A stretch of DNA of 63,919 nucleotides, the filler included, from Reclinomonas americana ATCC 50394 (Eukaryota), in the NCBI GenBank assembly GCA_048213135.1. It is 3 parts of 2 records of this genome, joined end to end, with 100 filler letters (N's around TTAATTAATTAA, not from the genome) between each part and the next. Parts side by side here need not be neighbours in the genome. Positions count along the whole stretch, not along the records: positions 1 to 29,519 come from PS015478.1; positions 29,620 to 53,544 come from PS015478.1; positions 53,645 to 63,919 come from PS015479.1. One strand, 5' to 3'. Positions 6,201-62,000 of the stretch are shown in pieces. Made by a program: the position numbers and the translations under genes. The notes below the pieces were generated by a model. It was not told where the DNA came from. It searched no databases and saw nothing but the letters and a program-made list of their open reading frames with translations. The stretch's first letter is position 1, and every line of letters begins with the position of its first letter.

Positions 6201-9200
6201 TTCTCTCGCTCGACGCTCGACGCTCTTCTCTCGCTCGACGCTCGACGCTCTTCTCTCGCTCGACGCTCGACGCTCTTCTCTCGCTCGACTCGCTCTACTC
6301 GACTCGCTGTTGCGTTTCTTGTTTACTCGCGATCGCCACATGTAATCATTTCTTCGTCTCTCTCTCTCTCTCTCTCTCTCTCNNNNNNNNNNNNNNNNNN
6401 NNNNNNNNNNNNNNNNNNNNNNNNNNNNNNNNNNNNNNNNNNNNNNNNNNNNNNNNNNNNNNNNNNNNNNNNNNNNNNNNNNNNNNNNNNNNNNNNNNNN
6501 NNNNNNNNNNNNNNNNNNNNNNNNNNNNNNNNNNNNNNNNNNNNNNNNNNNNNNNNNNNNNNNNNNNNNNNNGTGCAAAATGCACACATTCTATTGTCGT
6601 CGATCTCTCACTGTGCGCACACCGCATCCCAGTTTACTGTCGTGCCCGACGCGCCGACGTTTTTGCCGAGCACCATTGCCTCTGCAGCTGCTGGAGCCAC
6701 CATTATCTTGACGGGCACGTCGTCGCTCACTGTTGCACTTTTGCGATCGGTGCGACTGGAGCCGGCCACAACATGCACCCCGACGTCTGCGGGAGCCATC
6801 AGTGGCACTGTGAATGTTGTTGGCGGCTTTTCGAACTTGGCCGGCGGCACCCGCGTCCAGGCGACGATTGGCGGGACGGTGCGGTAGCCGTTTCTCAAAT
6901 TCTCCTCACTTTTTTATTACTTATTCACCCATCTCCCCTTTCCCTTCTGTGCAGGGTCTACCGCGAGGCGCGTACAGCGTGTGCGTCGAATACAATGCCG
7001 CCCCCGGCGTGTTTGTGCGCGCGGGGCCAGTACAACTGCTGGCGAACTCGGCACCCACTGGCATCTTCCTCAGCGCACCAGGTACATACTTTCCCTCGCA
7101 GCCGTCGGTGCAGACCGTTGGTACATTGTCGGCGACCGACAATGACGCCGGCGACTCGTTCACGTTTGCGTTGGCGACCGACGGGGTCTTGTGTCCACTG
7201 GCCAACAACACGGGATTCAGCTTCCTCGGGCCGATAACGCTGCAGGCGGCGGTGAGTATGGCATCCGTCGGCACACGGGTCGTATGCATTCAGGTGACCG
7301 ACGCTCTCGGCTTTACTCGAATCGCGCAAATGTCAATAGGAGAAGGTGCTGTAGAGCTTTAAAGTATTTGGTTTGCCGCCATGCACTTGTTGATGGACTC
7401 ACTCCGCCTTTACCCTCTCTTGCATGCGGCAGCCAACCTGTCACCAACAGATATTTCACTGTCGGGATTGCAGTCGTACATACCGTCGGCAGGCGCAGTG
7501 CACACGGTTGCCACGATGCAAGGTGTGCTCCTTGTGATTCCATTGCACAGCCTTTCCCCCCTTTCAGTGTCTGAGTTGCGTCTTGTCACACAGCGACGGA
7601 TCTGAATGCCGCCGACACGTTCGCGTTTTCACTCGTCAACGATCCTGTGCATTGTCCACTCAACGGCGTCGACAATGCGTCTTTCGGGACTGCTGTGTCA
7701 ACTCTGACGGGCGTGGCTGGTATTCCATCGACGGCCAGCGCGGTACGCACTATCTGCTTGCGTGTCACCGACACGGCTGGGGCAGCATTCACGAAACAGA
7801 TTGCTGTGGCGGAGCGTTGCGTCGTTGATCCATGTACCATGTGCCAGCCTTGGCTTTTTTTGTAATTCACGTATCTGTTCAACAGGCAACATGCCACCAA
7901 CCAATATCANNNNNNNNNNNNNNNNNNNNNNNNNNNNNNNNNNNNNNNNNNNNNNNNNNNNNNNNNNNNNNNNNNNNNNNNNNNNNNNNNNNNNNNNNNN
8001 NNNNNNNNNNNNNNNNNNNNNNNNNNNNNNNNNNNNNNNNNNNNNNNNNNNNNNNNNNNNNNNNNNNNNNNNNNNNNNNNNNNNNNNNNNNNNNNNNNNN
8101 NNNNNNNNNNNNNNNNNNNNNNNNNNNNAACAGTCGACAAAATGGACGCACGAGTAAATGTGCCAATGGCTTGAGAGACGCCGCTCCCGGGCTCGTACGT
8201 GAGCGGTCCAGAGAGTGTGAGGTCGGTCGGCGGTAGGTTCACTGCAGGCAAACACACACACACGGAGAGAGAGAGAGAGAGAGAGAGAGAGAGTCACCCG
8301 TTCGTCAAATCGCAATTCCTTGGGCTTCAAGAGCACATGACAAAAAGTCGCGCACCCTCGGTAATCGTGAACGACTTGTCGAAAAAGTTACCGGCACCGT
8401 CCGTGGCGCGAATGCACACAGCCCGAGTTCCCTACCACACGAAGCGCTCCGTGAGAATGCACGTTTGCGACAGACGGGGCACGCAGCAAACAAGAATCGA
8501 CGAACCGACACAGCGCTTGTGATATTCGTCAGTGAGCTCAGCGTCGTGCCCGTGACCTCGAACTGCGCATTGTCGGCCGCGCCGGCACCACACGACGCGG
8601 TGAGCGTGAATGTGACCGTATCGGTAATGTTCGGATCGACGACACTCAGCGTGGCGACTGCAGCCTTCGAGGACAAGTAGGGCGAGTATTTCGGCGTCGC
8701 CGTGGACATGGNNNNNNNNNNNNNNNNNNNNNNNNNNNNNNNNNNNNNNNNNNNNNNNNNNNNNNNNNNNNNNNNNNNNNNNNNNNNNNNNNNNNNNNNN
8801 NNNNNNNNNNNNNNNNNNNNNNNNNNNNNNNNNNNNNNNNNNNNNNNNNNNNNNNNNNNNNNNNNNNNNNNNNNNNNNNNNNNNNNNNNNNNNNNNNNNN
8901 NNNNNNNNNNNNNNNNNNNNNNNNNNNNNNNNNNNNNNNNNNNNNNNNNNNNNNNNNNNNNNNNNNNNNNNNNNNNNNNNNNNNNNNNNNNNNNNNNNNN
9001 NNNNNNNNNNNNNNNNNNNNNNNNNNNNNNNNNNNNNNNNNNNNNNNNNNNNNNNNNNNNNNNNNNNNNNNNNNNNNNNNNNNNNNNNNNNNNNNNNNNN
9101 NNNNNNNNNNNNNNNNNAATCTTGTATTTTCCTCATCTCCCACGCTCACTCGCTGATATGCAGCCACCGACCCCAACGCGTTTGACACGTTCACCTTTGC

Positions 9201-59092: not shown

Positions 59093-62000
59093 ATGGCGAG
59101 TGGGAGTGGAGTGCCGCGTGAGTTGCGTGTGTCTCTGACATTGTGCGCTGTTGTCAGAAGCAACATCTGACAATTCTTTTGTTGTCTGCCACCCGCAGTT
59201 ATCGCGTTCCTGATGATGAGGAATGCATGATGCGCCTTGTGAAGGCACTGTCTCGTCCATGCACCCGCGCTCTGCAATCCAAACTCGAGCAAGTGCTGCC
59301 GGCGTTTCTCGATTCGTATCCCGGCGTGAATCACGTCGATGAGTGGTGCAAGGCACCGAGTGAGCGTGATGTGCGGTGAGTGTGTGTGTGCGGAAGGATA
59401 TGGGAGCACACGATGCCAAGATGCAGATGGTGAGAGAGAAGAGAGAAGATTGCCACAAGCAAATGGCAGATGGTGACGCACTGGTCATCTCTTTCTCCCC
59501 ATTCTCCCGCTCTTCATCGTCTCACCACACACGACTCCACATTCCATCCCTGATGAATGCCCCCATTCTTGTCACACACATTCCCTCACTCACCAGCATC
59601 CTCTCATTCTTTGTGCTTTCCCACCATGCAGCACCATGCCAGACGGAGTGGACATGTGCGTCCAGTTGAACGAGAAGGAGCAGCAGACGGTGCGCGAGTG
59701 GCATCAGCGAGGCCAGCTGCACGACTGTAGTTCGTTTGATGCGATGCTGTGCTGCTCGATCTTGCTGTTGGCGGGTCATCGAGAGCACCCGCGAGACGAG
59801 CCAGATCGTCTGATTCCACCTGGCGATGTGGTGAGTGTGTGAGAAACAGGGAGAGGAGAAGAGGAGTGAGATTCTCTCTGTGTGATTGTGTCTCACACTC
59901 TCTCATTGTCACAGCGCGATGCAATTGAGCGCATGCGGGAGGTGTTTGAGCAAGCGAGTCCTGCACGAGCTCGTGCACTCTTTGTGCCTCTGCTCGGCGA
60001 CGGAGAAGAAGAAGGCGAGCTGCACCAGCTTGTGCGGCGACTGCAGATTGGCAGGGATGTGGAGGAGGAATTGGTGGTGCAGCTGAATGAGGCTCGTGAT
60101 GGTGAGTGAAGGGAGAGAGCAGGTGCTGTAGGTGGATGATTTGATCGAATGTGGAAGCTGATGTTGTCTTGATTGTGTGTGAATGCAGGTGCACTGAGTC
60201 AGGCAGATCAATCGCTGTTGCATGTGCACATGGAGCAAGTTGAGTGGATGTGCGAGAGGTGACGGTCATCTGCTGAGGACTCATGGCGTCTCCCTTTTTT
60301 GTGATTGATCAGATGCGGTTAGAAATGCAGGCGACAGTGCGTGCGGAGATGGAGCTCGTGCAACAGCAGCTGGGCAAGATGAGCATCTCTCCCTCTTCTC
60401 CCTCAGCTGCAGGTGTGTTCCACGATGGGCCTGCATTGAATGTGCATTTCTGTGCTCATCCTCACTCCCCACAGCACTTGATAGCCCTCCGAAGACACCG
60501 CTCATCGCCCGCACCGTCAATCCAGTGACCACCTTCCGCTTCCCGAGTCGGCGTGCACTGGCAGCCTCACTTGCCGCGCGCATTATGGATGCTGTGGAAG
60601 GTTGGGTGTTCCTTATCATTCTCCCGCCCTTCCTTGCATCTCCACATATTCGTGTGTCTCATCATGTTGTCCGTTGTTGATGATTTCTGCGCAGCACATC
60701 AACCAATCATTGTGGTGCTGACGGGTGATGGTGGCACTGGCAAGTCATTCCTGGCCGAGCTGCTGGTGACCGAGCTGCTGGCCACTCGTCGATGGAAAGG
60801 ATCAGCTGTGTCGGTGGAGATGCGTGGTCATGTGGGTGATGCGAGGGAGCATGTGAAGGTGTGTGTGCTGAGGCAACAGTCGTGTTGTCTCTCATGTTGT
60901 GTCATCTCTTTTGCTGTCATTCTGACTCTCTCTCTCTTTATGCCACGTGTTGCAGGCGGAGAGTGCTCTGGGCGAGTGTCTGCGAGTCTTTGTGACAGCA
61001 CAGACGAGAGTGGACGAAGTGGAGGGGCGGAGGATGGCCGGTCAGGTGGACGCGCTGCAGGCGGGTGGCGAGGTGGAACCAGCACGTCGTCTCCTGCGAC
61101 AGCTGATGCATGCATCGAGTGGAGTGATGGTGCTGGACAATGTGGGATCAGCGGAGCAAGTGAGGAGTGTTGTTCAATGTGCTGATGAGGGTGCGCGTGT
61201 GTCGTGGAGAGACTTCTCATTATTGCTTGGATGTTGGATCCTGACTTGATGTGCATCATGTGTCTGGCTGTGTGCAGGTGGAATGGTGGCACCGATTGTG
61301 GTGGTGACGAGTCGATATGGGCAGGTGGCTGATGAGATTCGTGACTCGATGATGCACGAGGCGGAGGTGGAGTGTGTGCGGGTGGAGAGTGTGGAGAACG
61401 AGGATATTGTGCAGCTGGTGGAGGAGCGACTGCTCCACAAGGTGTCAGGAGATGTGCGACGAAGGATCGTGGAGGCACTGGAGAGTGGACAGCAGGAGAA
61501 GAGTGCACTGCGAGTGAGTGCTTGTGTTGGGTGAGTGAGTGAGTGAGTGCGTCGATGAGGAGGAGAAGACTCACTCTTCTCTTCTCCTCTTCACAATGCA
61601 GCTGGTTGCTGTCACAGTCATCTGCACATCTGGTTGGATCGCGACTTGAGGATGTTCTGAGTGGCATTGGTGGCGATGCGCTGTCGCAGCTGCTGGAGCG
61701 CAATGTGATGTCGCAGACGACAGTAGCACGTCGTCTGTTGGTACTGATCACGGCGTGCAAGGAACTTGGTTTGCCAGTGACAGTTGCACTTGCGCGAGTG
61801 GCACTGGGTGTGCTGCGAGTGATTCCCGATATAACGATGGCTGTGGGTGGTGACGGTGAGCAGGCTGCAGTGGATGAAGATGAGGAAGCGGCAAGTCGGC
61901 TGGTGGAGTTGAGTCAGTGTGTGCGTCGACTGCGACTGCATGAGCTGGCACAGGATAGGCGACGGCGGGCATCCGAGGTGGTGGGTGAGCGTTTGCAGTT

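Follow-up and report, generated by a model that had tools for sequence, protein, structure and literature searches.

Genes of the locus and a putative class of unusual 5' splice sites

The window analysed here is a stretch of 63,919 bases from Reclinomonas americana ATCC 50394 (assembly GCA_048213135.1, records PS015478.1 and PS015479.1). It is a eukaryotic draft scaffold, broken up by 14 N runs, whose gene-rich part has a G+C content of about 55%. Four genes were recognised: a plus-strand cadherin-like repeat gene (about 4.8-17.9 kb), a giant cadherin-like repeat gene on the minus strand (about 18-51 kb), a minus-strand S-adenosylmethionine (SAM) methyltransferase gene (about 55.9-58.4 kb) and a plus-strand tetratricopeptide repeat (TPR) gene, which begins at about 59.1 kb. 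The window holds one intron per about 350 nt, and about one in six of these introns appears to open with an unusual 5' splice site (donor), in which a T at intron position +3 precedes the conserved part of the local donor motif. These extra-T donors are the subject of the present analysis.

The first-pass annotation of this DNA had listed 24 such sites, and the motif is indeed present, on the strand given, at all 24 coordinates. Seventeen of them read GTTGCGT, 2 GTTGCGC (11616, 31271), 4 GTTTCGT (10383, 17155, 24353, 25767) and 1 GTTGAGT (9386). The accompanying remark that the preceding exon rarely ends in G was also borne out, as the last exon base differs from G in 22 of the 24 cases and is G only at 10383 and 27612. 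By gene, 21 of the listed sites fall in the two related repeat genes; outside these only the site at 56011 is firm. The observation is confirmed as real and statistically strong in this window.

Spliced model of the giant repeat gene

The part of the giant gene between positions 24354 and 50137 (minus strand) was modelled as 70 tandem 92-residue cadherin-like/Big_9 domains interrupted by 78 introns. The model relies on the gene's own domain profile, a hidden Markov model (HMM) of the 92-residue unit built from open reading frames (ORFs) of the window itself, which matches Pfam Big_9, Pfam cadherin (weakly) and cadherin clusters in the atlas. As this profile sets the frame, the reading frame of each exon is independent of splice motifs. 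For every gap between adjacent domain matches, all GT/GC-AG pairs that keep both frames open were enumerated, and the candidate introns were judged by the number of residues left compared with the number expected from the profile; six two-intron gaps were settled by reading.

The 78 introns have a median length of 69 nt, and the spliced product contains zero stop codons. It gives 70 domain matches in a row, of which 68 cover the full domain and the two others are the halves of a single domain carrying a small insertion. All modelled introns end in AG, 77 start with GT and one with GC. Extra-T donors (GTTGCG or GTTTCG) open 13 of the 78 (about 17%), namely the 13 listed from 24795 to 49854. Removal of the modelled introns restores both the open frame and domain continuity, and the junction peptides do likewise elsewhere in the window. 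Within the repeat array, the domain match spans HMM positions 1-92 with only a one-residue linker under these donors alone, and alternative donors insert or remove 6-9 residues.

Introns duplicated by recent tandem duplication of repeat units were collapsed at 80% identity over the first 30 nt, which left 67 clusters. The extra-T donor is found in 13 of them, and each of the 13 is a singleton, therefore the introns of the class are not copies of one element. The claim that the class is abundant at this locus thus stands whether it is expressed as 13/78 or as 13/67.

Domains encoded between 39600 and 48100 (minus strand) are 85-95% identical and whole introns recur there in sets of two or three, which indicates recent tandem duplication of multi-domain units. 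Extra-T donors open 1 of the 28 introns at coordinates of at least 39600 and 12 of the 50 in the older part below. The sole GC donor of the model belongs to the GC-AG intron 43253-43310 (minus strand; aag/GCATGTTGG, the slash marking the cleavage site here and below); its duplicated sister at 44632-44689 (minus strand) has a GT donor (aag/GTATGTTGG). Two micro-exons on the minus strand, of 11 nt (30144-30154) and 17 nt (27613-27629), code for the final residues of their domains (INE and FTVVD, respectively), and the latter has GTTGCGT donors on both flanks.

Anatomy of the two donor classes

The 65 regular donors of the modelled gene follow the pattern G/GTNNGT: 59 have G at -1, 56 have G at +5 and 42 have T at +6. 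There is little constraint on +3, which is G in 28 donors, A in 14, C in 12 and T in 11, or on +4, which is C or T in 49. The 13 extra-T donors are built differently. G occupies -1 in only one of them (Fisher 5e-9 for 1/13 against 59/65). Without exception +3 is T, +5 is C and +6 is G, and in 12 of the 13 +7 is T. Taking both classes together, T is found at +3 in 24 donors; 13 of these have C at +5, and every one of the 13 carries +6 G, 12 also +7 T.

Eighteen donors of the modelled gene lack G at -1, and these comprise 12 extra-T donors, 5 that are exactly GTGCGT and 1 GTGTAT. Where the exon is unable to end in G, the intron opens with a fixed word, GTGCGT or GTTGCGT, of which the latter is the commoner. 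When the register is moved by one base, G/TTGCGT equals the local consensus G/GTGCGT except at the first intron base.

Three further donors have three bases between GT and the next GT, namely 27936 (minus strand; GTTTTGT), 45039 (minus strand; GTGATGT) and 7346 (plus strand; GTGCTGT), all of them after an exon ending in G. They may belong to the displaced layout in a looser form.

Enrichment and specificity of the motif

GTTGCGT occurs 28 times in the window, compared with 3 occurrences of GTAGCGT, 6 of GTCGCGT and 7 of GTGGCGT. In the four gene segments (53,853 bases) the sense/antisense counts are 24/4 for GTTGCGT and 1/2, 2/2 and 4/3 for the versions with A, C and G, respectively. The inserted base is specifically T. 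Within the modelled gene, 11 of the 11 sense copies of GTTGCGT coincide with modelled donors; the corresponding figure for GTGCGT is 13 of 17. GTTTCGT occurs 10 times in sense and 2 times in antisense orientation in the gene segments. Of the three forms grouped in the earlier list, GTTGCGT is enriched, GTTTCGT more weakly so, and GTTGAGT is not enriched.

Individual extra-T introns

In the modelled part of the giant gene, all on the minus strand, the extra-T intron with the highest coordinates is 49790-49854 (donor ctc/GTTGCGTCA at 49854), which is phase-consistent, keeps the TFTLT domain end and has no same-phase GT within 60 nt. The intron 38756-38820 (agc/GTTGCGTCT at 38820) lies at a domain boundary, one base past the last domain codon. 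It is followed by 35613-35684 (gct/GTTGCGTTG at 35684) and by two introns with the same donor, 34213-34280 (aga/GTTGCGTGA at 34280), where a G after the acceptor makes the junction ambiguous by one base on paper, and 33868-33933 (aga/GTTGCGTGA at 33933).

Several introns interrupt a domain. For 31194-31271 (cat/GTTGCGCAA at 31271) the HMM is continuous over the junction (d 0), and the same value was obtained for 30739-30826 (att/GTTGCGTCG at 30826), where an alternative GTGCGG donor 27 nt downstream would insert 9 residues. A third intra-domain intron, 29861-29924, has the donor tac/GTTGCGTTC at 29924, and the next exon, IGGVAGNELHVQ, fits the domain profile in this frame only. The intra-domain intron 25696-25767 (aca/GTTTCGTAC at 25767) also gave d 0.

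The intron 27630-27698 (act/GTTGCGTTG at 27698) precedes the 17-nt micro-exon 27629-27613, beyond which lies 27543-27612 (atg/GTTGCGTGC at 27612), with G at -1. The remaining modelled members are 26346-26415 (act/GTTGCGTCA at 26415), for which no same-phase GT alternative exists, and 24648-24795 (aaa/GTTGCGTCT at 24795).

Beyond the model, the giant gene contains the listed intron 24293-24353 (minus strand; cca/GTTTCGTTC at 24353), whose acceptor is preceded by a branch-like CTAAC motif. Two extra-T members absent from the earlier list were also found on the minus strand: 23080-23154 (taa/GTTGCGTTA at 23154; phase 2, with a read-through stop after 3 codons) and 21831-21892 (ctg/GTTGCGTTC at 21892; phase 0, with a read-through stop).

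Sites in the plus-strand gene were read by eye in frame, and candidates were ranked on single-intron gaps. In 7 such gaps (6 regular, 1 extra-T) the top candidate was at most one residue off expectation. The intron 7816-7885 (agc/GTTGCGTCG at 7816) joins ...IAVAE to (R)NMPPTNI, and read-through meets a stop. At 9386-9456 (aga/GTTGAGTGT at 9386), which joins ...IALVE to (K)NVPPTAI, read-through meets TGA as the second codon, as had been reported, and there is no same-phase alternative donor. The intra-domain intron 10383-10452 (tgg/GTTTCGTAG at 10383) has G at -1; if GTATGC, in the same phase and 24 nt downstream, were used instead, 8 residues would be inserted.

A probable intron of 69 nt at 11616-11684 (aga/GTTGCGCAG at 11616) was placed by analogy with other domain boundaries; its splicing is not forced by the frame, because the bounded stretch is itself in frame and without a stop. 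The intron 14463-14529 (ctt/GTTGCGTGT at 14463) was the top-ranked candidate, with d 0. A donor at 14903 (ctc/GTTGCGTTT; 14903-14984) lies one base past a domain end and has its acceptor inside the N run 14985-15949. The last site of this gene, 17155-17219 (cac/GTTTCGTAC at 17155), joins the ectodomain frame to the frame of a Ser/Gly-rich, transmembrane tail; it is frame-consistent, though not unique.

Two methyltransferase introns on the minus strand were listed. The first in coordinate order, 55955-56011 (cga/GTTGCGTGT at 56011), has the only phase-2 GT ahead of the read-through stop and a single AG acceptor. The other is a long, CT-rich intron, 57831-58354, for which GTTGCGT at 58354 and the in-phase GTGCGT at 58378 are equally suitable as donor; the motif spacing of a 255-residue homologue (P0015) falls between the two models. 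The sites 58378/58354 (minus strand) are tandem in-phase donors 24 nt apart in the first methyltransferase intron, and their products could differ by 8 residues. In the TPR gene, the first intron (59122-59198, plus strand) starts with GTTGCGT at 59122 or with GTGAGT at 59118. The former had been described as needed by the frame, which holds only where translation starts from the ATG at 59093; with another start codon, GTGAGT, located 4 nt upstream, would serve equally well.

The introns at 7816, 9386, 10383, 11616, 14463, 17155, 24353 and 56011 are GT..AG introns of 57-71 nt which join two frames into a sensible peptide, and those at 7816, 9386, 10383, 14463 and 24353 yield a canonical domain boundary or domain continuity. 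GT-AG ends hold at 12 junctions spliced on paper outside the model. Read-through meets a stop at 7816, 9386, 56011, 58354 and 59122, as well as at the unlisted 23154 and 21892. The earlier description of the donors as frame-consistent applies to the sites in the 78-intron model and to most of the others, with 11616 unforced and 58354 and 59122 provided with ordinary alternatives.

Recognition of the extra-T donors

Based on these observations, we suggest that the introns in question are probably ordinary GT-AG spliceosomal introns bearing a second, stereotyped 5' splice-site layout, H/GU-U-(G/U)CGU; we assign this reading a probability of roughly 0.55. Compared with the local strong donor GU(G/U)CGU, the extra U at +3 would shift the conserved intronic part 1 nt from the cleavage site, and the terminal G of the exon would be dispensable. 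The small nuclear RNAs (snRNAs) might then read the site one base displaced, so that G+1 would fill the slot of the -1 G and UGCGU the slots +2 to +6 on U1, with the extra T pairing with U1 A7. On U6, G+6/U+7 would take the place of +5/+6 in pairing to C and A within the ACAGAGA box, and cleavage would remain at the sole GU. Such a layout might be favoured where the coding sequence offers no G at -1. We know of no description of a U6 register displaced by +1.

The first-pass annotation had proposed shifted or bulged U1 pairing, and here the two ways of counting disagree. Pair counts favour the shifted register, which offers 5 Watson-Crick pairs and 1-2 G-U wobbles, compared with 2 pairs and 2 wobbles in the canonical one. 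Nearest-neighbour duplex modelling (RNAduplex, bulges and loops allowed) with the canonical U1 5' end gives no support and no stable duplex for the class in any register: the mean energies are -6.1 kcal/mol for regular donors, -0.5 for extra-T donors and -2.3 for 1,837 other sense GTs of the gene, values which leave out the U1 proteins and assume a 5' end from which the organism's own U1 may differ. As the extra-T duplexes are weaker than those of non-donor GTs, displaced pairing to standard U1 is energetically unconvincing. The earlier interpretation is partly supported: the class is abundant and resembles human displaced-register sites, yet its recognition is not explained by standard U1.

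Of the two displaced modes the shifted one is favoured by three features, namely that the -1 G is lost, that the extra base is always T and that G+1 could take the place of the absent -1 G. A bulged reading is disfavoured because a bulge would still use the -1 G. The +2/+3 bulge with the -1 G:C9 pair kept does not agree with the exon ends, as G is found at -1 in 1/13 of the modelled donors of the class and in 2/24 of the listed sites, versus 59/65 of the regular donors.

A number of facts weigh against the proposed layout. In the RNAduplex comparison the area under the curve (AUC) is 0.28 for extra-T donors versus 0.89 for regular ones, i.e. the class is weaker than background GTs. In the modelled gene, only 1 of the 6 sense copies of GTTTCGT serves as a donor. 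GTTGAGT shows no enrichment (8 sense, 7 antisense), hence this sub-class hangs on the single firm site at 9386. Four sense copies of GTTGCGT (6309, 7575, 20758, 57138) sit within introns, apparently unused. An equally frame-compatible ordinary donor is available near each of 58354 and 59122, 21 of the 24 listed sites are confined to two related repeat genes of one locus, and donor use at all these sites is deduced from the sequence alone. Finally, the sole published non-canonical U6 register that was found, in the accessible part of the report on STAT3 (PMC11162779), is displaced in the opposite direction.

The failure of canonical U1 to separate the class from background (AUC 0.28) could mean that these donors are read by a non-textbook snRNA. 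The lineage might have a sole U1 whose 5' end is changed (G at position 5, for example, would pair with C in GCGU), or a further U1 or U6 variant that matches GUUGCGU. The seven nearly invariant bases of the class, more than in regular donors, suggest direct base-pairing, and the C or T at +4 in 49/65 regular donors is in line with this idea. When G is placed at position 5 of a hypothetical U1 end, as in AUACGUACCUG and AUACGCACCUG, the AUC of the class rises to 0.75 and 0.80 with regular donors at 0.92 and 0.82, respectively. This is no more than a hint, as short-duplex energies leave out the U1 proteins and these G-C-rich ends lower the energies of background sites as well. Moreover, the U1 5' end (canonical ACUUACCU) is to our knowledge almost invariant in eukaryotes, and GTGCGT or GTACGT is preferred in many GC-rich organisms with standard U1. 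We consider a changed or variant snRNA, as suggested in the first-pass annotation, unlikely but worth keeping in view. The same idea was raised for the GTGCGTG consensus of Ostreococcus, in the available part of Irimia and Roy 2008 (PMC2483917).

It might also be that no special recognition takes place. The spliceosome would then require little beyond GU and accept these donors although they are weak and degenerate, with U at +3, and GCGT would be a product of mutation or composition bias. The nearly free +3 and +4 positions of regular donors and the absence of G at +5 from 9 of the 65 would suit such tolerance, but the linked bases of the +3 T donors (+6 G in 13/13 with C at +5, +7 T in 12) would not, nor would a motif that is sense-specific (24 versus 4), T-specific and a donor in 11/11 of its copies in the modelled gene. 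Drift would not be expected to produce the loss of the -1 G either (Fisher 5e-9), and we consider this account very unlikely. Comparably little probability attaches to the idea that the junctions are mis-modelled, so that other in-phase donors are used, segments are retained or the extra T is a homopolymer error of the draft. Good ordinary alternatives do exist at 58354 and 59122, 11616 can be read through, and the draft has 14 N runs and at least one inverted contig. Against this, HMM 1-92 matches with one-residue linkers are obtained only with these donors, the alternatives changing 6-9 residues, and read-through stops occur at 7816, 9386, 56011, 23154 and 21892. A random extra T would not follow a non-G at -1, and an error within the intron would leave the deduced junction unchanged.

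Other classes of intron were rejected. The base that follows the acceptor AG varies freely (A, C, G or T across the class), which makes it unlikely that both junctions lie one base further on, as in a UU..AGN reading. U12-type introns have the donor /RTATCCTT, and no donor among the 78 modelled or the other junctions begins with GTATCC or ATATCC. An introner-like repeated family is incompatible with 13 class introns that form 13 separate clusters (80% identity, first 30 nt). Stwintrons (twin introns), as laid out in the accessible part of PMC9024468, do not fit.

A wider version of the proposed layout would be that the spliceosome of this lineage routinely takes two 5' splice-site geometries, the second at about one intron in five, mostly where the exon cannot end in G, pairing U6 (and U1) 1 nt further from the scissile bond, either through the standard snRNAs or through a dedicated variant U1/U6. 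We offer this extension tentatively, as a possibility with the odds against it; the suggestion that such recognition may be routine in the lineage rests on one 64-kb window.

Comparison with known displaced donors

A literature search on the motif and on lineage-wide displaced donors returned no report of such a class; human work, lists of primers, a tunicate preprint and a paper on Ostreococcus surfaced. The statement that human GUU-type donors with shifted or bulged U1 pairing exist and are rare is correct according to the accessible part of Tan et al. 2016 (PMC4856993). Of the 201,541 human donors considered there, 68 fall in the bulge +2/+3 group and 51 in the bulge +3 group, and the validated non-canonical U1 registers together account for 1.5%. 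The shifted register moves all U1 pairs by one position, and the +2/+3 bulge loops out one U.

The human one-base-shifted sites (Roca and Krainer 2009, as cited in the available parts of PMC4856993, PMC9311317 and PMC11162779) are alike in that a single additional base separates the true GU from the consensus intronic part; G+1 likewise replaces the -1 G opposite U1 C9 and the cut stays at the GU. They are, however, described as a very small set with an AAGUAU-type tail and strong U1 pairing, whereas the donors described here have a (G/U)CGU tail, open about 17% of the introns of the modelled gene and have negligible predicted pairing to canonical U1. The human bulge +2/+3 and +3 registers (Roca et al. 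2012, as cited in the same part of PMC4856993) also involve GUU-type donors with one looped-out U and the rest paired as in the consensus. Here, in contrast, G is present at -1 in 1/13, though the bulge model keeps its use, and the inserted base is T only.

With regard to U6, the accessible part of PMC11162779 states that the G and U at +5/+6 pair with U6 C42/A41 after the departure of U1, and describes a cut that invariably falls five bases before that G. The downstream donor of STAT3 exon 21 (Kramarek et al. 2024, the same source) resembles the layout proposed here in the unusual spacing between the cut and the GU that pairs with U6 C42/A41. In STAT3 it is one base closer (+4/+5), whereas here it would be one further (+6/+7). 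STAT3 is also a single case backed by suppressor U6 experiments, whereas the present sites are many and predicted from genomic DNA only.

Introns of Ostreococcus have a similarly GC-rich, strong donor, GTGCGTG, which is built on GTGCGT and for which snRNA co-change was suggested (Irimia and Roy 2008, PMC2483917). In the part of that paper available to us no extra-T class is described, and its intron-poor genomes differ from the one intron per about 350 nt found here.

If the proposed layout is true, a seven-base donor displaced by one base, at no fewer than one-sixth of introns (at least 1/6), would constitute a natural system for studies of how U1, U6 and Prp8 measure the distance to the cut, and would show whether snRNAs co-evolve with donor classes. 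Displaced U1 registers have so far been regarded as rare curiosities. Gene finders trained on GTNNGT would rate extra-T donors as very weak and mis-annotate the genes that contain them.

Other features of the window

An Rfam scan of the window (gathering thresholds) and an ARAGORN tRNA scan of the window gave 0 matches each. A protein search with the TPR ORF returned 14 matches, the named ones being bacterial or from an unassigned metagenome, and a search with the methyltransferase exon returned 1 match. Two metagenome-contig loci (L001 and L002) retrieved by a single-domain scan were rejected as relatives, as they have 67% GC and no match to the domain HMM.

The contig at 8129-8711, between two N runs, carries domain pieces of the plus-strand gene on its minus strand and looks inverted in the scaffold; its minus-strand donors are regular (G/GTTCGT and G/GTGCGC). 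Identical joins at 29520-29619 and 53545-53644 consist of 44 N, TTAATTAATTAA and a further 44 N, and look like an assembler's six-frame-stop linker. The former join splits a domain of the giant gene.

The intronic GTTGCGT copies at 7575 (plus strand) and 20758 (minus strand) start 19 and 13 nt before the last intron base, respectively. The usual intron size is 55-90 nt, and introns of 0.5-0.75 kb are found at 48084-48830, 57831-58354 and about 5870-6600. These long introns are full of CT-rich low-complexity sequence and microsatellites.

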